The translations under genes were made by a program, and so were the position numbers. This document shows positions 2,333 to 55,751 of a stretch of 64,000 nucleotides of DNA, piece after piece. The notes beneath the pieces were generated by a model. The model was given only the letters and a program-made list of their open reading frames with translations, did no database searches and had not been told where the DNA came from. Where the stretch lies: NCBI GenBank assembly GCA_016929295.1, contig JAFGJB010000153.1, forward strand, positions 10,830-74,829, written 5' to 3'. Each line of letters begins with the position of its first letter. The stretch's first letter is position 1. Source of the stretch: Candidatus Zhuqueibacterota bacterium (GTDB lineage Bacteria; Zhuqueibacterota; Zhuqueibacteria; Residuimicrobiales; Krinioviventaceae).

Positions 2333-3601
2333 CTATGTTTTCAGCTTTTTCTTCTTGGCTGCAGGGAATAGAATGTTGTTCAGAATGAGTCGATAGCCGG
2401 GTGAATTTTTATGCAAAGAGAGCTGCGTGGGAGGATCATTGACAAAATGCTGATAGTCTTCAGGATCATGTCCCGCATAGTAGGTGAACGTCCCCTTGCC
2501 GAAATTGCCATGCACGTACTTGACCTGTTCCGTACCTTCGGCTTCGCCCAAAATGACGACGGATGGCTTGATGAGGCTCTTTTTAAAACCCGTGGTTTGC
2601 CCCATAAAACCTTTAATCGCATTGACATGGCACTGGGTGAGCATCGTCGGCACCGGATCGTACTTGGCGGAAAATTCAAAAAGTGTAAAATAGTCCGCTT
2701 CTGCGCCGCGCAGGAGCGGCGCATAGCTTGGCGGGATATCGATATCAGAGTATTCATAGAGCAGCGGATTCGGATCGATGGTGAAATTTTCAAAAGCCAG
2801 AGTATTGGCATAGTCCAGTTTTGACTGAGCCCCGGGCTCCACCGGGTCGCCATCAAAAACAGCATCCACAATATCCACGCCCATGGCAGCCAGAGCGATA
2901 TCAAAAGTGTCTGTGGCCGAGCACATGGCAAAAACAAAACCACCACGGCGAATATAGTCCTGAATGGCCAGGACAACGGCTTTTTTTAGCTCGGATACTT
3001 TGGCAAATCCCAGCCGCTGCGCCATCGCCTCATTTTTTTCGACTTCATCTCTATACCAGGCGGTATTTCTGTAATTTGCATAAAACTTGCCATATTGACC
3101 GGTAAAGTCCTCATGATGAAGATGGAGCCAGTCGTAGAGCTCCAGCTCGCCGCCGAGGACCTTGTCATCCCATAATTTGTCGTGCGGAATTTCAGCATAT
3201 TCCAGCGCCATCAACACCGCATCATCCCACGCCTGCTTGTTTGGCGGGGCATATATGGCAATTTTCGGCGCCTTTTCGAGCAACACCTTGTCCATATTCT
3301 CTTCATCAATGACCGCATACAGCTGCGCCATCTCACTGCCGCCGAGCAATGAAAAGGATACGCCGCGAATGCGCAGCTCTCTCTCGACAGCCGGATAGTG
3401 ATCCATCAAAAAGGAGCCGCCGCGATAGTTGAGCAGCCACTCGACATTGATGCCGTTCTCAAGGGTCCAATAGGCAACGCCATAAGCTTTCAGATGATCA
3501 GCCTGCTGCAAGTCCATATAAACGAGTATTTTTTGGGCGCAAGCGGACGAAGAAAAAAACATAAAGAGGAGCCACAATAGCAGAATATTTTTCGTTGTCA
3601 T
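2333..3601 (-). CDS. Secreted hypothetical protein (possible glutamine-amidotransferase-like fold); last gene of DUF4159 operon
   Basis: Signal peptide MTTKNILLLWLLFMFFSSSACAQ. 422 aa. Start overlaps the stop of the upstream TPR gene by 4 bp, suggesting translational coupling. No diagnostic catalytic motif recognised. Confidence 0.6.
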   Translation of the reverse strand: MTTKNILLLWLLFMFFSSSACAQKILVYMDLQQADHLKAYGVAYWTLENGINVEWLLNYRGGSFLMDHYPAVERELRIRGVSFSLLGGSEMAQLYAVIDEENMDKVLLEKAPKIAIYAPPNKQAWDDAVLMALEYAEIPHDKLWDDKVLGGELELYDWLHLHHEDFTGQYGKFYANYRNTAWYRDEVEKNEAMAQRLGFAKVSELKKAVVLAIQDYIRRGGFVFAMCSATDTFDIALAAMGVDIVDAVFDGDPVEPGAQSKLDYANTLAFENFTIDPNPLLYEYSDIDIPPSYAPLLRGAEADYFTLFEFSAKYDPVPTMLTQCHVNAIKGFMGQTTGFKKSLIKPSVVILGEAEGTEQVKYVHGNFGKGTFTYYAGHDPEDYQHFVNDPPTQLSLHKNSPGYRLILNNILFPAAKKKKLKT

Positions 3602-5439
3602 TTTTTCTCTTCCAGCTTTCTGACTCTTTCCCTGGCGCGTTCCAGGTGGATGCTGCCGGGAAATTCTGCCAGTAATTTCTCATATCGTTGCTGCGCCAGG
3701 GCATAGTCGGCGATATCCTGTTCGTATATCTCCGCCGATGTCAGCAGGGCTTCATCCCGGCAGTAACTGTCCTGGTCGGCGTAAATGCTGTCAAGAGCTG
3801 AGACGGCCGGCGCAAAGTCTTTCATCTTTCGATATGCTTCCGCTAGTAAAAGCCGTAACTCGCTACGTAGCAGTGAATTGCGGCTTTCTGACAGGTGCAC
3901 TTCCAGAGCCGTTTTCGCTGCTTCATAGCGCCGTTGGTTCATCAGCAAGCGCGATTTTCCCAAAACGGCCAATCCGGTCGAATCGTGAATGTTATCCTGT
4001 AAAAGTATACTCAGCTCCAGAGCGTCATTCTCCAATTCATCGACGCGAGTCGTGGGCACAGCGGCCGATAGATCAGCGAGATAATTCAGGCTTGCACGCG
4101 GCCGCATGCGATAAAATTCCAGATATGCCAGTTGCAAAAGACAGGCGTCCTTCAAGTCCGGCGCTTTCAGCGTCCTGGAAAAGGCATTCTGCAGATAATT
4201 TTCAGCGCCCGTCAGATCATCTCTGGCGAGAGCGCATTCGGCGAGGCGAAACCATGTCTGGATTTGCAGTCGATTGTCAGGATAGTGCAGCGCGCGTTTG
4301 TAAGCGCTTTCAGCCTGGCTGATATCGAACAGGTGCTGAAAGGAAATCTCGCCGATCTGCAGCAAGGCATTTCGCGTGTCTTCGGCGGATTCATTCGACT
4401 CGACAAAGAGCTGCAGGGCAGCGAGCGCCTGCGCATAATTCCGGTTTTTCACATAGACGTTTGCCAGATTGAGGCGTGATTTTGCCACAAATTTGCTGTC
4501 AGGCAGATCTGCAATGATCGCCAGCAAAGCTTCTTCGGCATATTGTGTTGCCCCCGCATTCAACGCCATATTGGCAAAGTCGAAGAGATACTTGCCGCTC
4601 TGAGAGGGGGCAAAAATCTTGTCCGCCTTGCCCTGCAGCAGGGCTGACTCCAGCTCTCGGTAATGCAGCAGCGCGTTATCATAAATATCGAGCGCGCTGT
4701 AGGCATCGGCGAGAAAGAGATGAATTGCCCACTCGATTTCGCCCTGATTTTTGAGCGCCTTGTTCAACTCCTTGAGCAGAACCCGAACATCCGGCTGATT
4801 TTGGCAAAATCGCTGCAATTCCGTCGATAAAAACGCGATTTGTTGGGGATGAGTTTGCGCATAGCGCAGATATTCGTGAACCAGCTTCTCTTGTTCGTTG
4901 GTTATTTTATAGAGATTCGCCATTTCGAACATGTAAACAGTCTCATCTTTCAACATCGCGCGAGCGGACTGAAAAACGCCGATGGCCTCTTCATAAAGCT
5001 GCGCTTCCGCGTAAATCTGGCCGATCAGAGCATAAGCCTGTTGATCATATGGATTCTCCTGCAGAATCCGTTTCCATGCCTCTCGAGCCGTCGCTTCATC
5101 GCCTCTCGCATGAATGATCCAGGCCAGATCGACGCGATAGCGAATGTCGCGGCGCTTTTGTTCGAGCATATGAATCAGCTGCTCCAAGCGATCGTAATCG
5201 CGCAACTGTGCAAGAGCGCGTTTGGCGCCAAGGTAGGCGACGACATCTTGCGGATTAGCCAGGCATGCCCGGATATAAAAGTCCGCGGCGTTCTCATACT
5301 GACCGACTCTTTCGAATGATTCTGCCATCCTTTTCAGAGTCAGAAGGTCATCCTTGTTCGCCGGTTGAGCATGGCTCGCCGTCTGCAACAGAAAGAGCGC
5401 GGCGAAAAAAAATAGTGCCCTATTCTTGCGACATTTCAT
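3598..5439 (-). CDS. Tetratricopeptide-repeat protein with signal peptide
   Basis: Signal peptide ...FFFAALFLLQTASHAQ, then multiple 34-aa helical repeats with the A/Y/L pattern of TPR. Overlaps both neighbouring genes (3598/3601 and 5420/5439). Confidence 0.7.
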   Translation of the reverse strand: MKCRKNRALFFFAALFLLQTASHAQPANKDDLLTLKRMAESFERVGQYENAADFYIRACLANPQDVVAYLGAKRALAQLRDYDRLEQLIHMLEQKRRDIRYRVDLAWIIHARGDEATAREAWKRILQENPYDQQAYALIGQIYAEAQLYEEAIGVFQSARAMLKDETVYMFEMANLYKITNEQEKLVHEYLRYAQTHPQQIAFLSTELQRFCQNQPDVRVLLKELNKALKNQGEIEWAIHLFLADAYSALDIYDNALLHYRELESALLQGKADKIFAPSQSGKYLFDFANMALNAGATQYAEEALLAIIADLPDSKFVAKSRLNLANVYVKNRNYAQALAALQLFVESNESAEDTRNALLQIGEISFQHLFDISQAESAYKRALHYPDNRLQIQTWFRLAECALARDDLTGAENYLQNAFSRTLKAPDLKDACLLQLAYLEFYRMRPRASLNYLADLSAAVPTTRVDELENDALELSILLQDNIHDSTGLAVLGKSRLLMNQRRYEAAKTALEVHLSESRNSLLRSELRLLLAEAYRKMKDFAPAVSALDSIYADQDSYCRDEALLTSAEIYEQDIADYALAQQRYEKLLAEFPGSIHLERARERVRKLEEKK

Positions 5440-8400
5440 ATTCTGTCAACGCCTTGAAATAGTGCTCAATCACCTCCAGGTAATCACGAGTATAGCCTTC
5501 CTTCTTGGCGCGCATCAGGGCCTGATCGAGTTGATTTTCTCTTTCTCCCAGCGATGGAGGAAGTTCATCGGGGCTCCTTGTGACATAGTCTTTTCCTCGT
5601 TCGGCTTGTCGCTCGCGGCTGAATTCTCTTTGATGTACCGATTTTTGCGCATCCAGCATGCGGGATAAAATTCGGTTTTGGCGATTGATCGTATCGCGCG
5701 TTATATTTTGATTGACAAAATCATCCTCGACTTTTTTCATCTCCTCGGCTATGTGGTCCAGACTTCCCAACACCTCGGACATGCCCGCTGCTTCGCGGGC
5801 CAGCTGTTCCATGGATTTGCGCACCTGGCGCTGCTCCGCCGCCAGTCTCGCCATGGCAGCCTGTTGACCGAGAGTCAGCATGCCCTCGGATCCCAAAGCT
5901 TGCGATTGTTGGTTTATCTGACTTTGAGAATCGCCCATCTGCTGCATCTGCTGTAAAAACTGTTGATAACTCATGCCGCCGCCGCCCCCTTGCTGCTGCA
6001 TATTTTGCATCGACTGCTGCAATTGACGGACAGCGGCGTTGAGAGCCATCATAGCATTGCCCTGGTTCACCGAAGCATTTGCCGCATTTCGACTCTCCAT
6101 ATACGCGAGCGCATCGTCCATGCTCATCATCGCCTGGCCGAGAGAACGGCTCACCTGCGGGTCCATACCGAAATTTTCCTTCATTGCCTGCGACATATCG
6201 TCGGCAACGCGCTCGAGGCCGGCAGCGATCTGCTGCTGCTGGTTCGCCTGATCGGGAAATTCCGCGCTGTTGAGCGGCATGCTCTTTGTCCCGTGCATGA
6301 CTTTTTCCTGGCGTTTGGATAACTGCAGCAATTCCCGCTGACTCTTGCGCATGGCCTTTAGCGCCTCTTGTTGCATCTGGCCACTCAAGAGCTGTTTGGC
6401 CATATCCAGTTGAGCGGCGATGTTTTCGAACGAGCCTGCGGCTTGAGATGATTTTTGTGGAACATTTTGCAAGAGATTTCTTGCCAGCAAATCTTGCAGT
6501 GTCGTCAGATTATCCTGCAGATTCTGGCTTTGCATCTCTGCGGCAGCATCATTGATCTGTTGATTCGGCATGGTCGGGATATCTTGAGATTCGCGTTGCA
6601 GCTCATTCAGCAGATCGGATAATGCGGCGGAATCTCTGCTGATCCGCTCCTGCTCCGCGTGCAGCCGCTGATGGTCGGGTTGCCGTTGCGCGCCCTCGGT
6701 GATGGAGGATTGTCTTGCCTGCAGATCGTGCGCCATTTTTAGCGCCTGATCCAATTTTTGTTCAGCTTTTAATTTTTTCAACAACGAGATCGTCCGGTCC
6801 AGCGTCTTTTCATACTCTTCGGCGTTCAGTTTTATTTCTTCCATGGCCTGACGTATCATCTCTTCATCCAGATTCTGCAGGGCCTCGGCCATTTTTTCCA
6901 TCGCCGTTTGCAGTTCAGGCGTCATGATCTCCTGATATAATTGCTGAATCTCCTGTAACTTGGTTGCTGTTTCCGGCGTGAAGAGATCGTTCTTTGTGAT
7001 CTTTTCGACCATGCTTTCCATTTTTTGCGTCAGCTCTTGAATATTTTTGTCGATCTCTTTCTGTTGCTCAACGGCCTGCTCTATTTCCTGCTTTTGCTGC
7101 CAGTCCATATCCGATGTCCGTTTCATATCCAGCGACAGTTGATCAAATTTCTTCTGCAATTCGCGGTTTTTCTCCAGGGTCTCGGCAAATGCATCTGTCA
7201 CATCATCCTGTTCAGTCGCAAACTCTTCATACATCTCATAGAGGGATGGAAAACGGGCCCGATACATGGCGCTGCGGGAACTCTTTGGGCCGCTGATGTC
7301 GTCATTGTCAAAGGCTTGTACATAGTAGACAAGAACATCTGTCGGAAACATCTCCTGCTGAGATAGATCCCAATTGAAGGCTATACGCAGCTCTTCCTCA
7401 TCTGCAGCGAATCCCCGTATGGGAGTCAAGGCAAAGCGCGCCGAGTCCGGCTCGCCTTCGCCACCCGGGAGGAGCTGATGGGCGAGCTGGAGTTTCGAAA
7501 TGCCAAAATCGTCTTGCGCCTCGATGGCGAGCGGGATCAGCATATCATCAGCGAGATCTATATCCCGCCCCGGGGTGACAATCTGCACGAAAGGAGCATT
7601 ATCCGGCATGACAGTTATCTGATAGGTGATGGGGGCGGCATTGCTGTGGCCGGCATCATCCGTCAGATTAATCGAATAAGTGTCATTCTGCCTGATGATG
7701 AAATCAGCGGAGATTCGCCGATCCTGAACATCAATACTCCTCCTGTCATCGGAAAAAAGCAGATAACCGAAATCCAGTTCTTTATTGGCGATGCCGGCAA
7801 GCTTGATTCTTGATCCCTTGAGCGCATAAATATCGCCGATATTTTCATCCAGCAGTGAGGATTCAATGCCAGCGTAGGCAGGAGGATCGACGCGCACCTG
7901 CAGGGAGCGCAGCATGGGGCGTTCGATGGGATAGACTGAAAAAACGCGCGAACGAATATCCCGCAATGAAAAAGAGTAGTTCAGGGTGTCGCGTATATTG
8001 GGAAAGGTGTGAGAAAAAGAATCAGCCATGGACCGCTGCAAGGTCAGCTGTTGCTGTCCGGATGGATTTTCAAAATGCAGCGTGAGTGACATGGCGCTGC
8101 TGTCAGAAAGCCACGCGCGCACGCGGAGATCCTGTCCTTTTATCACGCTTGCATCGCCCGGCACGACGACAAAGTCAATTTTTTCTTCGCCACGGACATC
8201 GGCGGCAGGAGACAACAGCCGCGCCAGCCCGACGGAAAAAAAGCTGCTGAACAGGAGGCCGGGAAGGAGAGAGAGTGCAACCAGGATGGCCAGCTTTTGG
8301 CCGGCACTTTTGGTCTGTGCGGCATTCACTTTCGAACTGAACTGTTCATCACCGATGAGATGTTCTATTTTAGCCAGGGAAGCCTCGATCAGATCGACCG

Positions 8401-8782
8401 AATATCTCCCTTCATCCCTTTCATAGTTTTCATAAAGTTGAAGAGCATTCACCAGCCGATCATCGACATTTGCATACAGTGCCCCCACTCGCAGCGCCAC
8501 GTCGGCCATATCGGGTCTGAACAATGAGACAAACGATCGCAGCGTGCGGCCGCCATGAATCAGCCCAACGATCAGCAACACGCATGACAATGCGATGAGA
8601 CAGGCAAGTCGCCACGCTTTCCCTGGCAGCAGCGCCAGTGCGAGAGTGGACATAAAGACAGCGGGGATCATGACGATGAAAATTGCCATCAGGCCCTGCA
8701 CCGTCGCCAGCGTTTTCTCTTTGCGATAATATCGCTTGAGATTGGCGACGAGCTTGAGAAATGTCGGGGTGTTTTGTTTCAT
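5420..8782 (-). CDS. Giant membrane-anchored coiled-coil protein (1120 aa) with poly-Q/low-complexity C-terminal half
   Basis: Two N-terminal TM helices (IFIVMIPAVFMSTLALALL, LACLIALSCVLLIVGLI) and a third at about residue 170. A beta-rich middle region, then ~550 aa rich in E/K/Q/M with heptad character and a QQQGGGGGMSYQQFLQQMQQM tract. The stop overlaps the DUF4159 gene start. Confidence 0.7.
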   Translation of the reverse strand: MKQNTPTFLKLVANLKRYYRKEKTLATVQGLMAIFIVMIPAVFMSTLALALLPGKAWRLACLIALSCVLLIVGLIHGGRTLRSFVSLFRPDMADVALRVGALYANVDDRLVNALQLYENYERDEGRYSVDLIEASLAKIEHLIGDEQFSSKVNAAQTKSAGQKLAILVALSLLPGLLFSSFFSVGLARLLSPAADVRGEEKIDFVVVPGDASVIKGQDLRVRAWLSDSSAMSLTLHFENPSGQQQLTLQRSMADSFSHTFPNIRDTLNYSFSLRDIRSRVFSVYPIERPMLRSLQVRVDPPAYAGIESSLLDENIGDIYALKGSRIKLAGIANKELDFGYLLFSDDRRSIDVQDRRISADFIIRQNDTYSINLTDDAGHSNAAPITYQITVMPDNAPFVQIVTPGRDIDLADDMLIPLAIEAQDDFGISKLQLAHQLLPGGEGEPDSARFALTPIRGFAADEEELRIAFNWDLSQQEMFPTDVLVYYVQAFDNDDISGPKSSRSAMYRARFPSLYEMYEEFATEQDDVTDAFAETLEKNRELQKKFDQLSLDMKRTSDMDWQQKQEIEQAVEQQKEIDKNIQELTQKMESMVEKITKNDLFTPETATKLQEIQQLYQEIMTPELQTAMEKMAEALQNLDEEMIRQAMEEIKLNAEEYEKTLDRTISLLKKLKAEQKLDQALKMAHDLQARQSSITEGAQRQPDHQRLHAEQERISRDSAALSDLLNELQRESQDIPTMPNQQINDAAAEMQSQNLQDNLTTLQDLLARNLLQNVPQKSSQAAGSFENIAAQLDMAKQLLSGQMQQEALKAMRKSQRELLQLSKRQEKVMHGTKSMPLNSAEFPDQANQQQQIAAGLERVADDMSQAMKENFGMDPQVSRSLGQAMMSMDDALAYMESRNAANASVNQGNAMMALNAAVRQLQQSMQNMQQQGGGGGMSYQQFLQQMQQMGDSQSQINQQSQALGSEGMLTLGQQAAMARLAAEQRQVRKSMEQLAREAAGMSEVLGSLDHIAEEMKKVEDDFVNQNITRDTINRQNRILSRMLDAQKSVHQREFSRERQAERGKDYVTRSPDELPPSLGERENQLDQALMRAKKEGYTRDYLEVIEHYFKALTEYEMSQE

Positions 8783-9525
8783 TGGGTTAGAGCATAGATG
8801 ATGATATTGACGCCCATCTGCAGCGCTTTTTCACGCACGGCCTCCGGGTTGCCATGCACCTCCGCGTCAGCCCAGCCGTCCGAAATATTGGTGTTGACAC
8901 TGTAAAAAGCAACCATGCGTCCGTTGTGAAAATAGGCATACGCCGCCGGTGGGCCGCCATCGTGTTCGTGAATTTTCGGCAGACCGCTCGGAAATTCAAA
9001 ATGATTATGAAAAACAGGGTGACTGAAAGGCACTGGCACCATTTCTTTGTTCGGAAACACCTTGGTCATTTCCTGGCGAAAGTATTGATCCATGCCATAA
9101 TCATCATCGGCGTACAAAAATCCGCCGTTTGTCAAATAAGCGAACAGCCGTTCTGCCTCTTTGGCTGAAAAGGATATCCTTCCATGGCCTGTCATGAAGA
9201 GAAACGGAAATGAGAATAGATTATCATCCAGCAACGAAACTCGCGCCTCCTCCTGAGCGACGTGAACGGCGGACTGTTCTCCAAGATAGTTCAGCATATT
9301 GGGCACGCTCGACGGATCATTGTACCAATCCCCGCCACCGCTGTATTTCAGCCGAGCGATGGTGAACGCACTCGTCGCCTCGCTGACCTGGGACAAGGCA
9401 CTCTCGGTGAGGGTGATCATGGCAAATGCCGCTAAAAACAGTGTCAATGAATATCTCATATACGCTTCGTACCAACAATCAGGCCATGAGCAAAAAAGCC
9501 GGCGCAAACCGGCTTTTTTCATCAA
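8779..9525 (-). CDS. DUF4159 domain protein (secreted)
   Basis: Conserved LKYSGGGDWYNDPSSVPNML block (the GGG motif of DUF4159). Signal peptide likely begins at internal Met (MRYSLTLFLAAFAMITLTESA), so the true start may be about 9459. Confidence 0.65.
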   Translation of the reverse strand: MMKKAGLRRLFCSWPDCWYEAYMRYSLTLFLAAFAMITLTESALSQVSEATSAFTIARLKYSGGGDWYNDPSSVPNMLNYLGEQSAVHVAQEEARVSLLDDNLFSFPFLFMTGHGRISFSAKEAERLFAYLTNGGFLYADDDYGMDQYFRQEMTKVFPNKEMVPVPFSHPVFHNHFEFPSGLPKIHEHDGGPPAAYAYFHNGRMVAFYSVNTNISDGWADAEVHGNPEAVREKALQMGVNIIIYALTQ

Positions 9526-9539
9526 GAATGACGGCAGAT

Positions 9540-10835
9540 TTACAGGAGCGATTTGTCTTTATATTCAATATAAACCTGTCTTTTCATTTGCTCGAGCCAC
9601 TTTTCCAGCTCTTTTTGTTTTTTATAATTCAGCGCCAACGCCTCAATACGATCATAATCTTTATCAAGATCAATTTCCCGCGCCTGCTCGCGCGAATTCA
9701 ATTTCAGTATATGAAATCCGTATTGCGTTTTGACAGGATCACTGATTCCACCCACCTCGACGCCTTCGAGTGCAAAAATGAATTCTTTGGCCATGCTGCG
9801 CAGTTGCTCGACTTCATAGACGCCCAGATGTCCGCGATCATTTTTGGTGGACTCATCGTCTGAAAACTCCTCAACCAAAGCGACGAAATCAGCGCCGTCT
9901 TGCAACTGTCGATGAATATCTTTGATCCTGGCTGCGGCGGCGATTTCATCCTCTCGCGTGGGTGTGATGCTGATCAGTATATGACGAGTATGAATTTTTT
10001 CGCCTCGTTTGTCTTCCAGTTTGATGATATGGAAGCCGAACTGGCTTTCAACAATGTCTGATAGTTCTCCGGGTTGCAGGCTGAAGGCGGCTTCAGCGTA
10101 TTCTTTCACAAACTCATCGCGCGACATGAAGCCGAGGTCACCGCCGCGTTGGGCAGAACCCGGGTCAGCCGATTGCTTGGCCAATTCGGCAAAGTCCGCG
10201 CCATCCAGCAGCTCTTTGCGAATTTGAATCGCTTTTTCCATGGCTTCCATTCTCGCTTTTTCGCCCGGCTGCGTCTCGACGAGAATATGGCTGATATCAA
10301 CCGTATCATTAATTCTGCCGAGAGAGTCTTTCATCGTATTATAAAATTCTCTCACCTCGCGCCGATTGACCGTCACATTCGCCAATTTCTGTTCTTGCAC
10401 CGCATTGGCGCGCAATTCCTTTTCAATGTCATCCCGATAATTTCGCCGTATTCGCGAGATCGTCATGCCAAATATCTGCTCCAGTTTTTCCTCGCCGCCG
10501 GCCTGTTGTGTGGCCATTTGCATTTGCTGATTGAGATACGTTTCAATCTGCTGTTCATCCGCATTTATGGTGTCTTTATCTGCCTGGATGACGAGCAGTT
10601 CTTTGGTCACGATATTATTCGCGGCGATCTTGCGAAATTCAGCAAATTTGGTCTGATCGCGCGCCGGGTCAACGCCCATCTGCGCCGCCATCATCCAGGC
10701 CATCTGCGTGACTTCCGATTCCAGTACAATCTCGTCATCAACAACCGCGACGATGCGATCGAGCAGTTCCTGCCCGGACAGCATCGTCAGCAGGATGAAA
10801 ATGGTGCTGAAAATGATTTTTCCGATTCGCTTCAT
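9540..10835 (-). CDS. SurA-like periplasmic chaperone / PpiC (parvulin)-type peptidyl-prolyl isomerase
   Basis: Signal anchor, SurA N-domain-like region, and two parvulin motifs (GGDLGFMSRDEF..FGFHIIKLEDKR and DRGHLGVYEVEQL..YGFHILKL). Confidence 0.8.
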   Translation of the reverse strand: MKRIGKIIFSTIFILLTMLSGQELLDRIVAVVDDEIVLESEVTQMAWMMAAQMGVDPARDQTKFAEFRKIAANNIVTKELLVIQADKDTINADEQQIETYLNQQMQMATQQAGGEEKLEQIFGMTISRIRRNYRDDIEKELRANAVQEQKLANVTVNRREVREFYNTMKDSLGRINDTVDISHILVETQPGEKARMEAMEKAIQIRKELLDGADFAELAKQSADPGSAQRGGDLGFMSRDEFVKEYAEAAFSLQPGELSDIVESQFGFHIIKLEDKRGEKIHTRHILISITPTREDEIAAAARIKDIHRQLQDGADFVALVEEFSDDESTKNDRGHLGVYEVEQLRSMAKEFIFALEGVEVGGISDPVKTQYGFHILKLNSREQAREIDLDKDYDRIEALALNYKKQKELEKWLEQMKRQVYIEYKDKSLL

Positions 10836-10838
10836 TTT

Positions 10839-11720
10839 TCATCTTTCCAATTTAAGGGAATCAAGATAATTCCACTTTATGTCAATCTTTGCCTCTTCGT
10901 TCAGCTGGCTCAACAGCTCTTTATAGCTGTCTTCCCGATTTCGTGCCTTGACGCGCCATTCGATGATATCCCGGACTTCTTCAAGTTCCTGCACCTTGCC
11001 TTTTTCGCGAATGTCGCGAACGAGGACCAAATAGTAGCCGAGTGATGTATAGATTGGCGTCGACACTGTGTTGAGAGACAAGCCGGCAAGTCTTCTCGCA
11101 ATTTGCTCCGGCAGCCTGTCGGGCGTGATCCAGCCCATGTTGCCGCTACTCTCTTTGCTGGCGTCTATCGAGCTCTCCTTGGCGAGCGTTGCAAAATCTT
11201 CTCCAGCCGCAATTTTTCCTCGTATTTCATAGGCCTCTGTTGCCGACTTTAAAAGCATAAGCTGAATATTGTAAAAATCCTTGTCGCGGACGAACTCTTC
11301 CGCGTTTTCATTATAGTACAAAAGAATCTCACTCTCGGATACCGACAGGTTGCTGTCAATTTTTTCCTGCAAATAGGCTGCGACAATAAAGTCTTTGTTC
11401 AATTCGTAAATTTTCTTCTGTACGGCTGGATTCTTGTCGAATTGTTCAACAAGAGCCTGCTGGTAAATCAACTCTTTTTCAGACCATCTCTGAACATAAT
11501 TTTGCAGCTGAATTTTAGACAGTTGCAGTCCAGGATTGCTGTTGAGTATGGCTCTTATTTCATCCAGGTGCAAAGTTGCATTGCCAGAAGATGCAACAAC
11601 GGGCGAGTCCTCCATTGCACCATCACGATTGCTGCACGACACAATAGTCAAAATCACTGCAAAAAAGAGAATCCCGTGAACTCGCACCTTACTCATCAGA
11701 CTGCTCTCGCTCCTTTTCAA
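10839..11720 (-). CDS. PpiC (parvulin)-type peptidyl-prolyl isomerase
   Basis: Signal peptide/lipobox-like ILFFAVILTIVSCS. Parvulin domain SGNMGWITPDRLPEQIA...LGYYLVLVRDIREKG. Confidence 0.7.
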   Translation of the reverse strand: MKRSESSLMSKVRVHGILFFAVILTIVSCSNRDGAMEDSPVVASSGNATLHLDEIRAILNSNPGLQLSKIQLQNYVQRWSEKELIYQQALVEQFDKNPAVQKKIYELNKDFIVAAYLQEKIDSNLSVSESEILLYYNENAEEFVRDKDFYNIQLMLLKSATEAYEIRGKIAAGEDFATLAKESSIDASKESSGNMGWITPDRLPEQIARRLAGLSLNTVSTPIYTSLGYYLVLVRDIREKGKVQELEEVRDIIEWRVKARNREDSYKELLSQLNEEAKIDIKWNYLDSLKLER

Positions 11721-13401
11721 TCACGTCTCGATAGACAAAAACAGGATATTTTTTTCTCAGCTCATCCATCCACTCACGGTTCAACTGATCCCGGCGTGCA
11801 ATCCGTTTTTCTCTGCGAATGGCGAGTCTCACTTGGTCGAACGGCTTGGGTGCATCGGCCTGTCGCTCCAGGATCTTTATTATGGAATAACGATTGCCGA
11901 TTTTAATTGGTTCCGATATTTCACCGGCTTTCATTTTAACCGCCGCCCTGCCGATTTCGCCGTGATCTCTTCGGGTGACATAGCCTAACATTCCATCATC
12001 ATTGTTCTCTCTGTTATCGCCAAAATTGCGCACAAGCGTCGTAAAATCTTCCGTCAATGCTTTCTGATGTATTTCACGGGCTCTGGTGGAATCGGACAGC
12101 TGCAGTTCCTGCACCTTGACACGGACATTTTCCTCGTACAGATGCGTATTGGCGTTATAGTGAGCCACCAGTTCCTCATCTGTTATTTCGGCATTTTGAT
12201 CGATCTTGAGGCGTTGTATTCGTTGTATCATGGCGTTCTCTTTTTGCCGCAAAACAGCCTTCCGCACGCGCTCGCAGCGCTGCATTCGAGTTTTATAACC
12301 GTGATGTATCATGATTTTCCGCGGCACATTTCGATTTAAAAATTCAAGAACGGCAGCGGTATCCACCAGGGCCGGGCGTCGCATCGGCGATATCCGCTCA
12401 TAGGTGGTCAACAGCTCCGCAAAAGTATACTCACCACCTCTGAAGGAGGCGAGAGGAATTTGGCGTTCAGATAATGATAAAAACCCGGCAAACTGCCGCG
12501 GATCGCGGCGCAGGTTCACTTTCTCTTCTGTATGATTCTTCTCGGTGGCGTCGATCAGCACCAGTATGGTGTCGATCTTGTCCCGAAATATCTGCCCGTC
12601 ATACTTTTTGAACATCGCATCTCTGTAGGCGAAATAGGCGCTGTCCAATCTTGCGCTATTTTCACGAATCAGTTGTCGCTCGATATTTTCTTTTTCCTTT
12701 TCGAACGGTCCTTGAGCAACCGCGCGAATTTTAGCGACTTTGACCAGATGCAGCCCTTTGTCTGAGACAAAAGCCTTTGATACCTGCCCTTCTCTCAACG
12801 CCGCCACCTGCTGCATAAAGGCCTCGCCCCAGCTATTAACATCCCAGCGGATGAATCCCAGATCGCCATTCTTGCCGGCGCTTTTGGCGTCGCGCGAATA
12901 TTCACGCGCCAGTGCGCCAAAATCTTCGCCACGTAAAGCTCTCGCGCGCAACGAGTTCAGCTGTTGCATCGCCTGAGCAGAATCCTGCGTGAGGGGCATG
13001 AAGATATGACGGACCTGCCACTCTTTGGCATTTTCATAGCGCTGTCGAATCATTTTTTTGCTGATGACTTTGCGGATGACATCCCGTTCGATGGTATTGG
13101 ACAAAACCTCGCGCGTCTCGAAATCATTCATCCGCGACAGCACAACGGAATCCTGTTCAAAGCCGGAATTATAGGCGTCCATCAATTTCAGCTTTTCTTC
13201 CACCAGTCTGTCGACAATTTTTAACACCTCTGACAGAGAGTTCGCCGGCGTGCGTGCAGCCTGGATCTCTTGTTCAAGATCCTGCAGGCTGATGACATAG
13301 TTGCCGACGCGCGCAACAACCGGCCGTCGTTCGCACGTCGGGGAAAACATCGTAAAAATCATAAAAACAGCAAGATATATAAAAATAAGATGTTTTTTCA
13401 T
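11689..13401 (-). CDS. PpiC (parvulin)-type peptidyl-prolyl isomerase, SurA/PpiD-like
   Basis: Signal peptide. Two parvulin-like segments (NGDLGFIRWDVNS..KGLHLVKVAKIR and DDGMLGYVTRRDHGEIG..RYSIIKILERQ). Confidence 0.75.
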   Translation of the reverse strand: MKKHLIFIYLAVFMIFTMFSPTCERRPVVARVGNYVISLQDLEQEIQAARTPANSLSEVLKIVDRLVEEKLKLMDAYNSGFEQDSVVLSRMNDFETREVLSNTIERDVIRKVISKKMIRQRYENAKEWQVRHIFMPLTQDSAQAMQQLNSLRARALRGEDFGALAREYSRDAKSAGKNGDLGFIRWDVNSWGEAFMQQVAALREGQVSKAFVSDKGLHLVKVAKIRAVAQGPFEKEKENIERQLIRENSARLDSAYFAYRDAMFKKYDGQIFRDKIDTILVLIDATEKNHTEEKVNLRRDPRQFAGFLSLSERQIPLASFRGGEYTFAELLTTYERISPMRRPALVDTAAVLEFLNRNVPRKIMIHHGYKTRMQRCERVRKAVLRQKENAMIQRIQRLKIDQNAEITDEELVAHYNANTHLYEENVRVKVQELQLSDSTRAREIHQKALTEDFTTLVRNFGDNRENNDDGMLGYVTRRDHGEIGRAAVKMKAGEISEPIKIGNRYSIIKILERQADAPKPFDQVRLAIRREKRIARRDQLNREWMDELRKKYPVFVYRDVIEKEREQSDE

Positions 13402-13464: not shown

Positions 13465-16400
13465 TTATAACATACTTTGCAAGAACTTTTTGGCATCTGT
13501 CAGGTTCGTTTCTTTGCGGGACATGGTCATGGCAAAGCCGAGCTTTTCTTCGCCGTGTAAGAGCTCAAAACTGTCCGGAGCCTGTCGGATGATGTCAGCC
13601 AGCCAGGGTCGGAACTTGTCGCCTTGCGGGATCGCTGCGTAATCGAATTCTCCGCTCAGCCGGCCATTGTGAATGGTCACTTTTTTGAGGCGCAGCTGAC
13701 GTGCGGCCATTTTTATCAGAATATAGTCGATGAGATTTTGTGCCTGAGCAGGGATATCGCCAAATCGATCCAGGAGTTCTGTCCTCATGTCGTCGACCTC
13801 GGTCGCCTTGCGCGCCCTCACCAACCGACGATAGATATCAACTCGCTCCGCTGATGAGGTGACGTAATTCTCCGGCAGATAGGCATCCGCGTCGCACTCC
13901 ACTTTGGCCGCAAAAGAATCGTCCACTTGAACATCATCGTTCATATTCAAATCACGGCGAATCTCGGCGATCGTTTCCTGAATGATTTTGGTATACAGTT
14001 CATAGCCGAGGGCATTGATGAAACCTGTCTGCTCCGCGCCAAAGACGTTGCCAGCGCCACGGATTTCCAGGTCGCGCATGGCGATTTTATATCCGGCGCC
14101 CAGCTCCGAATATTCCTGAATCGTCTGCAATCGTTTGATCGCATCGCGCGTCATTTTCCGCATCGACGGGATGAGCAAGTAGGCGTAAGCTTGCTGGTCG
14201 GATCGTCCGACGCGTCCGCGCAGCTGATAGAGCTGCGCCAGGCCGAATTTATCCGCTCGATGAATGATGAGCGTATTGGCATTTGGCATGTCAATGCCGG
14301 ATTCAATGATCATCGTGCAGACCAGGACGTGCACTTTGCCTTCGATGAATTGCAGCATGATCTTTTCCAGTTGATGGCCTTTCATCTGGCCATGGGCCAC
14401 GGCGATGTTGGCTTCGGGAACGATCTCGTTCAATAGAGCGCTCACGCCATGTATGGATTGCACCCGGTTGTGCACAAAAAAGACCTGTCCGCCGCGATCC
14501 ATTTCCCGCAAGATCGCCTCACGGACGAGCTCGCGATCGAATCTGCTCACCTCGGTTTTGATGGCCAGTCGATTATGCGGAGGGGAATTGATGATGGACA
14601 TATCCTTGGCGCCCATGAGAGCGAGGTGCATTGTGCGCGGAATCGGCGTCGCGGAGAGCGTCAGTGTATCGACGGTCTGTTTCAAAAGCTTTATTTTCTC
14701 TTTATGAATGACGCCAAATCGCTGTTCTTCGTCGATGATCAGCAGACCAAGATCATTGAACTGTACGTCCTTAGACAGCAAACGATGTGTGCCGATGATG
14801 ATATCCACCTCGCCGTTCGCGAGTTTTTCGAGTATGTTTTTCTGCTGTCCGGTTGTTTTGAAGCGAGAAATCACTTCAACAAGGACGGGAAACTGCGCCA
14901 GTCGTTGCTGGAAAGTGGCGAAATGCTGTTCGGCTAAAATGGTGGTCGGGACGAGGATGGCCACCTGTCTGCCGTCAGTGACCGCCTTGAATGCGGCGCG
15001 AACGGCGACTTCTGTTTTGCCATAGCCGACATCCCCGCAGATGAGTCGATCCATGGGTTGGGCGGCCTGCATATCTTTTTTAACCTCGGCGATCGCGCTC
15101 AATTGATCGACCGTCTCTTCAAACTGGAAGGACGCTTCCAGCTCTTTCTGCCACACTGTATCCTCCGAAAAAGCATATCCCGGACGCATTTTGCGGGTAG
15201 CATAGAGCTTGATCAGATCCTCGGTGATTTCGCGCATGCGTTTTTTGGTACGTTTTTTCAATCTCTCCCAATTGGGACTGCCGAGCTTGTTCAGCACCGG
15301 CACAGCGCCTTCGGCGGACGAGTATTTTTGCACCTGATCCATTTTTTCAAGCGGCACATAGAGCTTGTCACCGTCCTGATAGAACAGTGTCAAGCATTCG
15401 CGAACCTTGCCATAGGCCTTGATTTTCTCAAGACCGCCGAAAGAACCGACGCCATAGTCATTATGGACGACATAATCGCCTTTTTTGATTGATAATCGCT
15501 CGCGAAAAGAGACTGAGCCCCTTTGCACTGGACTGAGCGCGTGCATTCGTATGCGGCTGTATAATTCACGCGTGGTGAAGACATGGAGATTCTTTGCCGG
15601 CCAGGAGAATCCGTGCGACAGATTCAAAGTGCATATGTGGATAAGTGGTGGAAAACCCTCTTCACGGAACAGCTCGATCATTCTATCTCTCTGACTATCA
15701 GTGTCGCACACAAGACAAACGACTGGCGGCGCTTTGGTGGATAAAAGGTGATCAAAATCCTGGCGAAACAATTTCAAGTTTCCGCCGTAATGGCCGTTTT
15801 CCCGAATGCCAAAATGGATGGCATTCTCATCCTGATCCGCAAAAGGCTTCACCTGGATGACGGGCCGTTTTTGCAAGCGTTCATCCAGTTCATCGGCGCT
15901 GCTGTAATAGTCGCCATAGGCAGGTTCGTCCGGCGCCCCTGCTTCCGCCACACTTTCAAAATGAACCATGGCCTGCCGCTCATGGTCCCGCAGCGCCGCT
16001 TGAATGAGCGCCTTGTTTTCAAGCCACAGGACGAACTCTTCATCCAGATAATCAAAAACAGTACATTTCAAGTCGAGATCGAGGAGGGTGCGCGCCTCGA
16101 CCGGGCCATAAGGGCCGGCGCAGCCGAGAGGCAAAATTCGTAGGGCGGAACATTTTTCGACAGATCGTTGCGTTTCAGCATCGAATGACCGAATGGATTC
16201 GATGGTGTCGCCCCAGAATTCAATGCGAAACGGATTTGGCCGTTCAAAAAGAAAGACGTCCACCAGACCGCCGCGGACGCTCATCTCTCCAGGGATGTCC
16301 ACGCGCTCCTCGCGACTGAATCCCATTTCCACCAGTTGTTTGACAAAGAGATCGAAAGGGGTTGTATCGCCGACCTGCAATGACAGGCTATACAGCTCAA

Positions 16401-16815
16401 CATCAGCGGGATCCGCCACCTTTTCCAGAAGTGCGGGCGCGGCGGTGATGAAAAAGCGGGCTGTCTTGGTCATGAGAGCATCAAGCGCCAAAATTCTGCC
16501 GCCGACCTGGGATCGCAGTGGGCCGAGCTCGTTCCATAATTTTGCCCCCAGCGCCGGATAGTAGACCACTTTTTCGTCATCAACCAGCTCGCGTATATCG
16601 GCAAAAAAGTGTTCTGCCTGCGACTCGCTCTCGCAGACGCAGAAAAATTTTCGTCGCAGACGTTGGTGCAGAGATGAAATCAGAAAGGCAGTGGCTGAAC
16701 CGGCCAAGGTGGCGACCGTCACATTCCGATGCTGTTCAACCCTGTTTTGAACGACATCGAGATTTTTTTCACCAGAAAACGCTGATCTGATTTTATCCAC
16801 AGCTGTCATCAACAC
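13465..16815 (-). CDS. mfd: Transcription-repair coupling factor Mfd
   Basis: 1116 aa. UvrB-homology N-terminus, RNAP-interacting domain, DEAD/DEAH superfamily-2 helicase motifs ([22 protein letters not shown]), and a TRG/translocation C-terminal region. Confidence 0.95.
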
Positions 16816-29182: not shown

Positions 29183-29216
29183 TTGTACAAATTTTTAACT
29201 ATATTTATTTTCGACG

Positions 29217-31590: not shown

Positions 31591-31794
31591 ATGCTCAAAG
31601 CGGCATTCAAAAAAATCAAAGAGGCCGATAGTTATAAAAAAAGAGGCGTCCTCTATGCGTCGGTGGCGATTCTTTTCATGCTCTATGAATTCATTTTTCA
31701 TCGCCCGCCGCGTCTGACTGTTTTATTATTGTGGCTCGGCCTCCTCATCATAGCCGTTTTTGTTATGACCACCTTGAAGGATCCGCGACGATGA
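31591..31794 (+). CDS. Small hypothetical 2-TM membrane protein
   Basis: 67 aa ORF, 14 bp after the SpoU stop. Hydrophobic segments VLYASVAILFMLYEFIF and VLLLWLGLLIIAVFVM. Overlaps the next gene start by 4 bp. Confidence 0.35.
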   Translation: MLKAAFKKIKEADSYKKRGVLYASVAILFMLYEFIFHRPPRLTVLLLWLGLLIIAVFVMTTLKDPRR

Positions 31795-45780: not shown

Positions 45781-46221
45781 GTCAAGTTTTATATTTGCAT
45801 TTTCTGCAAAACCGCACGTTGACTATTATCCCTAAAAAAAGCAGAGTTGGCAAAGATTTAATATGTTCTATAAACAATCTATAATAGGCTATTAATAGTC
45901 CCTCAGAAACTTGGCCGCTTTCGAAATATTCTGCTTTTAAAGGTTGTTCTCCATATAAAATAATGCCGGGGAAATTAAATCGAACCAAAAATCTACTATG
46001 TGACAATACTTGATATGCCGTCCCGGGAATAGTTAACGATCTTTATATTTTGCACCGACTGTTCTGTAGAATAAGTTTCGCTTCTCATAACTGATATTTT
46101 TCAGGAAATGCATGTAAGCGCCCCCAAGCCATACTGTGAAGGAAAAGACGAAATTGATTGGCTTGAAAAATGGGGCACGAGGTGCGATCCGAAAACAGAT
46201 GCTACTCTATTGGAGAGAGAA

Positions 46222-49425: not shown

Positions 49426-49432
49426 TAGCCTC

Positions 49433-55314: not shown

Positions 55315-55323
55315 TTGCAAAAC

Positions 55324-55536: not shown

Positions 55537-55751
55537 GCAAGCCTCATTTTCATACGTGGCAATAATGGATATAAAGATATGAAAATATTTCTTACATTGT
55601 AAAAATATTTCGCGCCTGACTATTTTCGATTTATCGACTGCGTTTACGCGCCTTTATTTTCAATAGGTTGGCGACCTTGAAAATACGATAGTATGGCACA
55701 GATGTTGTCCCATTTTCTTTGGTACAATCTCATCAATCATGGAGGAAAAGC

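Follow-up and report, generated by a model that had tools for sequence, protein, structure and literature searches.

Four consecutive minus-strand genes of a candidate-division KSB1 bacterium, lying in a window of 64 kb (the whole stretch of DNA analysed), encode in gene order a DUF4159 protein, a 1120-aa DUF4175-family giant, a 613-aa exported TPR protein and an exported protein of 422 aa, here termed p422. The module looks like a relative, lacking MoxR, DUF58 and BatA/VWA, of the MoxR-linked DUF4159/DUF4175 clusters of Gemmatimonadota and, by extension, of the cmd operon of Rhizobium. It would represent a cut-down form of the poorly understood MoxR/Bat "cell-envelope integrity" clusters that recurs in several little-known phyla, and its best-conserved member, p422, is a probable enzyme misnamed asparagine synthetase B in databases. 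We propose, with about as much doubt as confidence, that the four genes specify a single extracytoplasmic machine composed of two conserved pairs and serving envelope maintenance in the periplasm.

Organization of the four-gene locus

The open reading frames (8779-9525, 5420-8782, 3598-5439 and 2333-3601) overlap by 4, 20 and 4 nt at successive junctions, where the letters read ATGA, ATG...TAG and ATGA; coordinates and junction letters confirm what an earlier sequence-only reading had described. The same overlaps are retained in two KSB1 relatives whose DUF4175 proteins share 61% and 45% identity with the giant. Stop/start overlaps of 4 nt are very common in bacterial operons, and while those seen here allow translational coupling, they do not prove the stoichiometric co-expression that had been read from them. 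A scan of the locus for consensus promoters and terminators gave no signal above chance. Three PpiC/SurA-like genes upstream, and the genes downstream, are co-directional and closely spaced with the four-gene set.

All three smaller proteins carry signal peptides, and the giant is predicted to be N-in/C-out. For the DUF4159 gene the maximal frame extends to a TTG at 9525, but the start is most likely the internal ATG at 9459 (M23), because homologues are 217-234 aa long and their N-terminal alignment begins at the signal peptide that follows, MRYSLTLFLAAFAMITLTESALS. The coordinates of the genes and their features are collected in Table 1.

Table 1. Genes, domains and motifs of the four-gene module, in window coordinates
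Feature	Position	Strand	Basis
DUF4159 protein, 226 aa	8779..9459	-	Pfam PF13709, 221.5 bits, E 1e-65
DUF4175-family giant inner-membrane protein, 1120 aa	5420..8782	-	Pfam PF13779, 59.5 bits
Giant, TM helix 1, residues 34-52	8627..8683	-	Kyte-Doolittle 2.57
Giant, TM helix 2, residues 59-77	8552..8608	-	Kyte-Doolittle 2.55
Giant, TM helix 3, residues 164-182	8237..8293	-	Kyte-Doolittle 2.26
Giant, predicted periplasmic beta-rich region, residues ~200-510	7253..8185	-	AF2 strands 204-510, pLDDT ~90
Giant, predicted periplasmic helical region, residues 514-1119	5426..7243	-	AF2 secondary structure
Giant, Q/G/M-rich low-complexity tract QQQGGGGGMSYQQFLQQMQQM, residues 929-949	5936..5998	-	
Exported all-TPR protein, 613 aa, signal peptide MKCRKNRALFFFAALFLLQTASHA	3598..5439	-	Multiple Pfam TPR families
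p422, exported, 422 aa	2333..3601	-	Very conserved family
p422 motif DWLHLHHEDFTGQ, residues 157-169	3095..3133	-	On and just after core beta strand
p422 motif RGGFVFAMCSATD with Cys227, residues 219-231	2909..2947	-	Alignment and model
p422 motif GHDPED, residues 377-382	2456..2473	-	Model pLDDT <50 here
p422 C-terminal Lys-rich tail AAKKKKLKT-COOH	2336..2362	-	Alignment

The DUF4159 and DUF4175 proteins

The Pfam match of the first gene product leaves its earlier assignment to DUF4159 secure. Pfam places this family in the class-I glutamine amidotransferase (GATase) clan on structural grounds (PMC4702930), and its sole relative in the PDB is 4i66, the uncharacterised Hoch_4089 protein. Conserved Cys residues are absent, and the protein would be a small, exported, non-catalytic member of the clan, encoded beside DUF4175 in most lineages examined.

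The Pfam DUF4175 match to the giant (E 2e-16) spans residues 293-513 only. A homologue search found 64 proteins, the 100% match being a KSB1 MAG protein, and the AF2 model has a mean pLDDT of 81.6. Hydropathy and the predicted strands at 204-510 bear out the three N-terminal TM helices and beta-rich extracytoplasmic segment seen by the sequence-only reading. From hydropathy and the positive-inside rule, with seven Lys/Arg before TM helix 1, the N-terminus is predicted to be cytoplasmic, as is a conserved helical loop of ~85 residues that precedes TM helix 3; the giant would be anchored in the inner membrane by these elements and extend ~940 residues into the periplasm, as about three Ig-like domains followed by a long acidic helical array. 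The beta region is modelled as roughly three tandem Ig/macroglobulin-like sandwiches and holds acidic motifs invariant in the DUF4175 family, DDFG (424-427) and DNDxISGPK (492-500). Its Foldseek matches in the PDB (E 4e-6 to 1e-4) are tandem MG/Ig domains, from complement C3/C4/C5 and from phage T5 pb4, and at the level of the predicted model they amount to generic fold similarity.

A C-terminal coiled coil of about 550 residues had also been proposed. The region is indeed long (~600 residues), helical and acidic (pI 4.8), but AF2 predicts about 18 helices of 10-61 residues with loops between them, a pattern that points to a bundle or array of helices more than to one continuous coil. The low-complexity tract noted there is present and occurs family-wide in the homologues, with the consensus MQxMxQGGxxGMxxxQFMQQMQ. 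That a region so long, helical, charged and Q-rich belongs to a cytoplasmic cytoskeletal or SMC-like coiled-coil protein can hardly be true, as three TM helices put it outside the cytoplasm, the giant has Ig-like domains and exported partners, and its sequence matches in the PDB are at chance level (E >=0.01). Membership of a cytoskeletal or chromosome-segregation family devoid of membrane topology, which would have spoken against the sequence-only reading, finds no Pfam match in this three-TM protein.

A role for the giant in cell division, like that of AdvA in Acinetobacter, with the module acting at the septum, is also highly improbable. AdvA is essential for division and annotated with a DUF4175 domain, but its match is N-terminal, with its two predicted TM helices, before residue 203 (PMC7481262), whereas that of the KSB1 giant covers the Ig-like region. 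KSB1 relatives do carry FtsE/FtsX genes downstream, a few genes away, and one DUF4159-DUF4175 pair directly follows ftsQ-ftsA-ftsZ, yet ftsZ adjacency is confined to a single lineage, other contexts being SecDF, gidB and PpiC genes. We prefer to think of DUF4159 and DUF4175 as together forming an anchored periplasmic scaffold.

The TPR protein and p422

The C-terminal TPR_6 repeats of the TPR protein resemble YbgF/CpoB and BamD with scores under their cut-offs (61.6 bits against 90.1 for NCBIfam tol_pal_ybgF, over residues 498-605; 36 bits for BamD). In a profile search, an orthologue adjoined p422 at 44 of the 69 loci with at least 2 kb of upstream sequence.

Rather than the accessory secreted partner it had been taken for, p422 is by far the most conserved component of the module and alone among the four proteins shows enzyme-like invariant residues. 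Across four other copies its identity is 86, 76, 59 and 64%, against 69, 69, 50 and 42% for DUF4159, 61, 45, 25 and 29% for DUF4175 and 56, 35, 24 and 22% for the TPR protein, so that p422 retains 59-64% where DUF4175 has fallen to 25-29%. The family comprises only about 20 full-length clusters at 50% identity. Public NCBI records label it "asparagine synthetase B", a name that is unsupported because p422 has no match in Pfam or NCBIfam, including the N-terminal amidotransferase and Asn_synthase domains of AsnB, and carries an export signal; AsnB is cytoplasmic, and no likeness between the two is detectable.

The best structural matches of p422 are instead to the class-I GATase clan (ThuA, GATase1_like PF07090, Glyco_hydro_42M, DJ-1/PfpI and true GATases), the clan in which Pfam also places DUF4159. 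These structural scores are weak, and at the sequence level p422 matches no clan member; an hhalign comparison with DUF4159 aligns the strand of the Cys227 motif alone, at 31% probability. The likeness lies in a Cys at the nucleophile elbow and a C-terminal motif containing His. In the predicted model Cys227 occupies the turn between a strand (222-226) and a helix (229-238), the place at which class-I GATase-like enzymes have their "nucleophile elbow". Cys227 is the sole conserved Cys and, like His378, nearly invariant, the one sequence without it also lacking His378. Within DWLHLHHEDFTGQ, three residues (D165, F166, G168) are invariant and H163 is nearly so. The sequence of GHDPED recalls the His-Pro-Glu with which the GATase triad ends. 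Differences from the clan are an additional N-terminal alpha/beta domain (24-108), export, and H-D-P-E in place of H-P-E.

Taken with these weak structural scores, p422 is probably a GATase1-like-fold Cys/His enzyme. It could alternatively have this fold without catalysing anything, serving in binding or structure like DUF4159, GldG or the GIFT domain of IFT52, and be conserved on account of many protein contacts. This we think somewhat improbable: the elbow position holds a single conserved free Cys, the one sequence that has lost this Cys has lost the His as well, and the invariant His/Asp/Glu clusters and ~60% identity between phyla are conservation at the level of an enzyme. As an enzyme, p422 would be the catalytic subunit of the second pair, a hydrolase or transferase using Cys227 and His378, and its substrate may come from the envelope, for example peptidoglycan peptides, lipoproteins or material of the outer membrane. 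The TPR protein would be its adaptor, possibly gripping the conserved Lys-rich C-terminal tail. This tail is kept as ...KKxKT in most members and is replaced in some Bacteroidota by a T9SS type A sorting domain; Por_Secre_tail scores above cut-off in six of seven long variants, titled [quoted passage not shown] at NCBI. Judged from this sorting domain, such homologues probably act at the cell surface and therefore fit poorly with an obligate periplasmic scaffold.

Distribution and relation to MoxR, Bat and cmd systems

Beyond local synteny, the order DUF4159-DUF4175-TPR-p422 recurs between unlike flanks in KSB1, a Krumholzibacteria MAG and one further assembly, and such co-occurrence accords with the sequence-only reading. 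The full order is found at 15 of the 53 p422 loci with at least 6.5 kb of upstream sequence, including Marinimicrobia, Latescibacterota and Eisenbacteria, and junctions at joined loci are often -4 nt. Each pair also occurs without the other nearby: DUF4159-DUF4175 after ftsZ or gidB, and TPR-p422 in Ignavibacteria, Calditrichia and Bacteroidota, some of these pairs carrying ClpX or M16 peptidase genes in between. At 19 of the 53 loci neither TPR nor DUF4159/DUF4175 genes lie near p422, which is therefore not strictly dependent on them in cis.

Such separations, and p422 as T9SS cargo, would be expected if the pairs were two unrelated neighbouring systems, juxtaposed through inherited order or shared regulation. 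We regard this as distinctly unlikely, given that the joined order persists between unrelated flanks in five or more phylum-level lineages, that DUF4175/TPR junctions overlap or nearly abut, and that MoxR-linked clusters likewise join DUF4159/DUF4175 with a TPR and a GATase1-like-fold protein. On the single-machine proposal, the enzyme would sit on the scaffold within one periplasmic complex wherever the pairs are joined in a tight operon, as they are in KSB1, Marinimicrobia, Latescibacterota, Eisenbacteria and Krumholzibacteria.

Three independent genomes hold clusters of the Gemmatimonadota type, ordered TPR/Peptidase_MA_2, DUF4159, MoxR (AAA_3), DUF58, BatA_N+VWA_2 and DUF4175, as on Gemmatirosa kalamazoonensis plasmid 1 (NZ_CP007129.1); in two of the three a GATase1_like PF07090 gene lies nearby. 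Common to these clusters and the KSB1 module are a homologous DUF4159 and a homologous giant with a three-TM and Ig-like N-terminal half, the KSB1 giant profile matching the MoxR-linked giants from position 6 onward through the TM and Ig region (E 1e-87 to 1e-104). The clusters also hold a large exported TPR protein and a protein of GATase1-like fold, but no homology was detected between these and the KSB1 TPR protein and p422, so this parallel is architectural only: the KSB1 TPR protein is without a Peptidase_MA_2 domain, and p422 is soluble whereas the PF07090 protein is a membrane protein.

The KSB1 module further differs in having no MoxR AAA+ ATPase, DUF58 or BatA_N/VWA gene nearby. No such gene occurs among the window's ORFs of 200 aa or more, as the sequence-only reading had held for MoxR and VWA, or within 10 kb of the MoxR-less loci whose genes carry Pfam annotation. 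These absences weigh against a complete MoxR-DUF58-BatA/VWA system of which the module would be just the periplasmic half, its ATPase and VWA proteins being encoded elsewhere in the KSB1 genome and still driving the way the DUF4175 complex is assembled or remodelled. Such a split is unlikely in our estimation, even though MoxR-DUF58-BatA is flanked by DUF4159 and DUF4175 homologues in the three genomes and both types of giant conserve the N-terminal part, made up of the membrane segments and the cytoplasmic loop, that might serve for docking.

The Bat (aerotolerance) operon of Bacteroides and spirochaetes comprises MoxR, DUF58, BatA, BatB, BatC (a TPR protein), BatD and BatE. Like the KSB1 module it combines inner-membrane proteins having large periplasmic parts with a TPR protein. 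Searches of the four KSB1 proteins for BatD (PF13584), BatA_N (PF07584) and VWA found none, and identification of the giant as BatD is rejected. The description "Bat-like without MoxR/VWA" was nonetheless partly right, because homologues of DUF4159 and the giant sit in MoxR/DUF58/BatA clusters; it does not extend to the TPR protein and p422.

The cmd operon of alphaproteobacteria contains MoxR and DUF58. CmdD of Rhizobium is presumably a DUF4175/TIGR02302 protein, and the KSB1 giant has no match to NCBIfam TIGR02302, an alphaproteobacterial family. We know of no p422 homologue in the cmd system. The likeness lies in a MoxR-family operon for envelope integrity with two transmembrane proteins, which interacts genetically with TtpA, a periplasmic TPR protein with a homologue in Rhizobium; the 621 residues of Brucella TtpA are close to the 613 of the KSB1 protein, a resemblance of description and length. 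The CenR envelope regulon of Rhodobacter includes both a TIGR02302 and a MoxR gene. Mutants of Rhizobium leguminosarum cmdA-cmdD (RL3499-RL3502) are reported to have envelope and morphology defects (as cited in PMC5700661 and bioRxiv 10.1101/551135). To call the KSB1 module an "undescribed" scaffold was too strong, since both DUF families are in Pfam and this related operon has phenotypes that link it to the cell envelope.

The four-gene module and its DUF4175 protein

Four consecutive minus-strand genes, whose overlaps of 4, 20 and 4 nt had been read from the sequence as a coupled operon, were confirmed with minor corrections both by ORF scan and in the junction sequences (in module order CAATGAAA, ATGAAATGTCGCAAGAATAG and AAAATGACA). 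For the DUF4159 gene the ATG at 9459 is the probable start, with a product of 226 aa, because its called homologues are 217–234 aa long and their N-termini align with a signal peptide that begins at M23. All three of the smaller module proteins have signal-peptide-like N-termini. A promoter and terminator consensus scan of the module gave nothing above chance, and no family of the PADLOC anti-phage defence models matched any of the four proteins.

Features of the window discussed in the text
Feature	Position	Strand	Basis or content
203-aa ORF	1706-2317	minus	Signal peptide; very weak OMP beta-barrel match; lies between p422 and yjbQ
p422	2333-3601	minus	ORF scan; without Pfam match
TPR protein	3598-5439	minus	ORF scan; many Pfam TPR families
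DUF4175 giant	5420-8782	minus	ORF scan; Pfam DUF4175, E 2e-16, residues 293-513 only
DUF4159 ORF	8779-9525	minus	ORF scan; Pfam DUF4159, E 1e-65
Three consecutive PpiC-type peptidyl-prolyl isomerase genes	9540-13401	minus	431, 293 and 570 aa
1140-aa ORF, then POTRA + Omp85 protein (589 aa)	25760-30986	plus	1140-aa ORF without Pfam match
Large secreted proteins with T9SS-type C-terminal domains	31731-33743, 52786-55320, 55719-58328		CHU_C, FlgD_ig, Por_Secre_tail
S8 peptidase and STAND-type NTPase region	46108-52405	plus	G+C falls to 0.37-0.41 at ~48-52 kb

The DUF4159 protein matches Pfam PF13709 over profile positions 1–202 of 202 with 221.5 bits (cut-off 25.9), while the 1120-aa giant reaches 59.5 bits against PF13779 (cut-off 27.3), its best stretch covering profile positions 185–394 of 825 only; both therefore belong to their respective families, and relatives of the giant carry the NCBI name “DUF4175 family protein”. 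The C-terminal repeats of the TPR protein gave only sub-threshold YbgF/CpoB-like and BamD-like NCBIfam matches.

The giant has a 100% database match to a hypothetical protein on a 100-kb contig of a candidate division KSB1 MAG. Hydropathy places transmembrane helices at residues 34–52, 59–77 and 164–182, the first preceded by seven Lys/Arg, and these features argue for an N-in topology with a cytoplasmic loop of ~85 residues and ~940 residues outside the cytoplasm. The AlphaFold2 model (37 homologues, mean pLDDT 81.6) contains beta strands between residues 204 and 510, followed by ~18 helices between 514 and 1119. The three transmembrane helices and beta-rich segment of the sequence-only reading are thus retained, but in place of its C-terminal coiled coil the model predicts many separate helices; no continuous coiled coil was demonstrated in the protein, a crude heptad-periodicity test being uninformative. 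A cytoplasmic coiled-coil role, of the kind played by the cytoskeletal or chromosome-segregation proteins once considered as a counter-case, is excluded by the predicted topology. Foldseek against the PDB found tandem macroglobulin/Ig-like domains of complement C3/C4/C5 and phage T5 pb4 as counterparts of the beta region (E ~1e-5), a resemblance that we read as a generic statement about fold. The invariant positions of the family lie in this Ig-like part, as the acidic motifs DDFG and DNDxISGPK; the helical part is itself acidic (pI 4.8) and includes a Q/G/M-rich tract at residues 929–949 that is kept in the family consensus. PDB sequence matches to Cdc37 and other proteins, all with E of at least 0.01, were rejected as chance similarity of helical low-complexity sequence.

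p422, a conserved exported protein

Identities to four other copies of the module, from loci fetched for comparison, keep a consistent order in which p422 exceeds DUF4159, followed by DUF4175 and the TPR protein.

Identity of the module proteins to those of four comparison loci
Protein	L001	L002	L004	L091
p422	86%	76%	59%	64%
DUF4159	69%	69%	50%	42%
DUF4175	61%	45%	25%	29%
TPR protein	56%	35%	24%	22%

A word-indexed search with p422 gave at least 8000 matches, and identity is 71% or higher in the best 120 of them. When 1.84 billion representatives of 50%-identity clusters were searched exhaustively with a profile, 1762 hits emerged with only ~20 full-length clusters, so that the family has diverged very little. 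Scanning one genome per species located p422 in at least 598 species, among them Bacteroidota, Ignavibacteriota, Kapabacteria, Chlorobiota, Marinimicrobia, Latescibacterota, Calditrichota, Zixibacteria, Eisenbacteria, Cloacimonadota and KSB1; a few MAG labels among the carriers, Alphaproteobacteria and Lentisphaeria for instance, probably reflect errors of binning. The family comprises thousands of metagenomic sequences and is without a Pfam model or solved structure, and PDB sequence searches with p422, both as single sequence and as profile, gave nothing meaningful.

Relatives of p422 are named “asparagine synthetase B” in NCBI records. This name is unsupported, as Pfam, NCBIfam and PDB sequence searches gave p422 no match, and it bears a signal peptide, whereas asparagine synthetase B is cytoplasmic. 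Neither the N-terminal class-II amidotransferase nor the C-terminal Asn_synthase domain of AsnB was detected in p422 by Pfam or NCBIfam, and a literature search pairing the name with gliding or T9SS gave nothing relevant.

In the predicted model the sole conserved cysteine, C227 in the motif FAMCSATD, follows strand 222–226 and precedes helix 229–238, where the nucleophile elbow of a class-I GATase-like fold would lie, and the motif GHDPED (377–382) recalls the His-Pro-Glu end of the GATase triad. When the full-length members that diverge most are aligned, almost all keep C227 and H378, and the single aligned homologue without the cysteine (Asn instead) is also without the histidine (Arg instead). 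With the cysteine at the predicted elbow, the GHDPED motif and the near-invariance and joint loss of the two residues, p422 is probably an enzyme, either a thiol hydrolase or a transferase; it is these observations that weigh against a non-catalytic p422, one of the main rival readings. The structural matches of p422, which are weak, fall in the Pfam clan shared by DUF4159, ThuA, PF07090 and GH42M (PMC4702930). Direct hhalign comparison of p422 with DUF4159 aligned no more than a single strand, with a probability of 31%.

The C-terminus of most members is a conserved Lys-rich tail, FPAAKKKKxKT; Spirosoma (Cytophagales), a cultured carrier, has a p422 of this tail form. In longer members (497–545 aa) this tail is swapped for a T9SS type A sorting domain, with Por_Secre_tail above cut-off in six of seven, from Bacteroidota MAGs, and two named by NCBI as Bacteroidota T9SS-domain proteins. 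As the sorting domain replaces the tail, p422 is probably delivered to the cell surface in some lineages, and the alternative ends hint at its site of action. The KSB1 protein has no sorting domain (Por_Secre_tail or TIGR04183) and terminates in AAKKKKLKT. Elsewhere in the window, the proteins with T9SS-type domains include an M1 peptidase, a DUF3160 protein and one that resembles CotH kinases and has a lamin-tail domain; because several large secreted proteins carry such C-terminal domains, the KSB1 bacterium appears to use a type IX secretion system (T9SS), yet its own p422 has kept the tail. Binding of C-terminal peptides is common among TPR domains, as established for Hop/EEVD and PEX5/SKL, and by these precedents we propose that the adjacent TPR protein might read the Lys-rich tail.

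Gene context and neighbouring genes

Profiles of the four proteins were compared with all ORFs of 80 fetched loci, the upstream tally being limited to the 53 with at least 6.5 kb upstream of p422. DUF4159, DUF4175 and TPR genes precede p422 in the same order in 15 of the 53, DUF4175 and TPR in two and TPR only in 17; all three are absent in the remaining 19. Overlaps of 4 nt are frequent at the DUF4175/TPR and TPR/p422 junctions of these p422 loci. In KSB1 relatives the module keeps the flanks that it has in the window, and Krumholzibacteria-type loci have the complete module with SecDF upstream. DUF4159–DUF4175 without the other pair follows ftsQAZ or gidB. Since each pair is met apart and the joined order recurs in several phyla, the module consists of two separable pairs that several phyla have joined. 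Separate occurrence is also what a second main rival builds on, namely that the DUF4159–DUF4175 and TPR–p422 pairs act independently, to be set against their joined order. A role in cell division is weakly suggested by the one ftsZ adjacency and by AdvA of Acinetobacter, although the link of AdvA to DUF4175 is confined to its N-terminal transmembrane region.

ClpX lies between the TPR gene and p422 in Ignavibacteria (12 loci), and two M16 peptidase genes take this place in one Bacteroidota MAG. ClpX also adjoins a DUF4175-like/TPR pair in a Brocadiaceae genome, and the association with proteolysis genes is recurrent (positions 8658-9914, 7254-10000 and 15205-16458 of comparison loci L027, L013 and L005, respectively). 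An apparent TPR–p422 fusion in an Ignavibacteriales MAG (L023, 8030-11242; a 1070-aa ORF matched by both profiles) was rejected as Rosetta-stone evidence: a run of N, translated as X, bridges the two genes, which shows how automated calls of gene fusions in MAG scaffolds can mislead. A solitary gene for DUF4159, with 45% identity to its KSB1 counterpart, occurs on Corynebacterium crudilactis plasmid pCRULAC1 (NZ_CP015623.1; L093, 9028-9645), adjoining a dihydrofolate reductase gene within a mosaic of IS26/Tn3 and aminoglycoside/sulfonamide resistance genes. A Gram-positive plasmid is an odd site for a periplasmic-type DUF4159, a hint that the gene was acquired from a diderm.

Directly upstream of the module in the window, the PpiC-type trio, whose first member has a weak SurA_N match, comes after mfd, rsmG and mnmG; two KSB1 relatives share this order of genes, other phyla do not, and the trio might be co-transcribed with the module. 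On the other side, the 203-aa ORF was rejected as a fifth member because no homologue was found near p422 in the 80 loci and none in KSB1 relatives; nor did it match the ORF of 210 aa found after the module in L004. The conserved downstream neighbours YjbQ/UPF0047, FAA hydrolase and FtsE are cytoplasmic housekeeping genes and were therefore attributed to synteny only. Farther away, the 1140-aa ORF and Omp85 protein, preceded by an NHL-repeat protein, look like a TamB/TamA-type translocation-and-assembly pair. The region of low G+C, whose products are an S8 peptidase of 1105 aa bearing a T9SS sorting domain and a STAND-type NTPase of 990 aa (DUF4062, NACHT/AAA and TPR), may be a horizontally acquired or defence-related island.

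Relation to MoxR-containing envelope clusters

Clusters of MoxR, DUF58 and BatA-type genes are widespread, with Bat known from Bacteroides and spirochaetes and cmd from Rhizobium and Brucella, and have effects on the integrity of the envelope, on shape or on tolerance of stress; to our knowledge their biochemical role has gone unexplained for over two decades. The sequence-only reading had likened the module to a Bat operon lacking MoxR and VWA genes. This absence holds for every window ORF of 200 aa or more, among which no MoxR (AAA_3), DUF58 or BatA_N/VWA gene was found, and none lies within 10 kb in related MoxR-less loci. Distant homologues of the giant do sit in clusters with MoxR, DUF58 and VWA genes, found in two metagenome-derived loci and in cultured Gemmatirosa kalamazoonensis (megaplasmid NZ_CP007129.1, where tblastn matches were located), and a third main rival supposes that other regions of the KSB1 genome supply the ATPase and VWA components. 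The clusters share a core of TPR+Peptidase_MA_2, DUF4159, MoxR (AAA_3), DUF58, BatA_N+VWA_2 and DUF4175-like genes, to which the metagenome-derived loci add a GATase1_like (PF07090) gene and a ~330-aa gene without Pfam match. By hmmsearch, the KSB1-type giant profile matches the MoxR-linked giants over the transmembrane and Ig-like half (E 3.6e-104 and 2.9e-87), and the DUF4159 profile matches the same clusters at E 1e-31.

The link to Bat/MoxR-type clusters therefore stands for two of the four proteins, DUF4159 and the giant. A Pfam scan at E up to 0.01 gave DUF4175 alone in the giant, without the BatD “oxygen tolerance” domain PF13584; the TPR and p422 profiles had zero matches at E up to 10 to the MoxR-cluster TPR/Peptidase_MA_2 and PF07090 proteins, and Pfam found neither of these last two families in the window proteins.

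We prefer, as the best-supported reading, a module in which DUF4175 and DUF4159 would form an inner-membrane-anchored periplasmic scaffold, to which p422, as probable enzyme, and its TPR adaptor would have been joined in the KSB1 lineage, the whole being a MoxR-less relative of cmd/Bat-type clusters for envelope maintenance. The earlier interpretation, of a Bat-like envelope scaffold, is partly supported. Directly observed are the order and overlaps of the genes, their domains and export signals, the pattern of conservation and the link by homology, from which we infer complex formation, catalysis, substrate and physiological role. A fuller version, which we consider rather unlikely as a whole, would make p422 a Cys/His enzyme of the FCB superphylum, exported, extremely conserved and previously overlooked, which modifies a polymer or lipoprotein of the envelope; a TPR adaptor of its own would position it via the Lys-rich tail, the pair would dock on an ATPase-independent DUF4159/DUF4175 trans-periplasmic scaffold in several candidate phyla, and other lineages would swap the tail for a T9SS sorting domain leading to the cell surface. 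If true, this would represent a new envelope-maintenance pathway and the first biochemical handle on the Bat/cmd/MoxR clusters. Practical value is limited for now, as all function is inferred; the main value of the finding is p422 as a candidate enzyme to assay from a mis-annotated, extremely conserved family.

The cmdA-D operon of Rhizobium leguminosarum (RL3499-RL3502) is described, in later papers that cite the original work, as encoding MoxR, DUF58 and two membrane proteins, with envelope and morphology defects on its loss and genetic interaction with the periplasmic TPR protein TtpA (PMC5700661; bioRxiv 10.1101/551135). Growth defects in Tn-seq data support this. The CenR envelope regulon of Rhodobacter includes a TIGR02302 gene and a MoxR gene. 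CmdD may be a homologue of the giant; TIGR02302, an alphaproteobacterial long low-complexity membrane protein family, itself has no match to the KSB1 protein, for which NCBIfam gave zero families at E up to 0.01. The module indicates that DUF4159 and DUF4175 do not need ATPase and VWA genes beside them to persist, and by its union of these two with a TPR protein and with p422, which is very conserved and probably catalytic, suggests which components form the functional core. The module and the Gemmatimonadota-type MoxR clusters are alike in combining a DUF4159/DUF4175 core with a TPR protein and a protein of GATase1-like fold, the fold being putative for p422, yet the proteins in these last two positions differ between the two.
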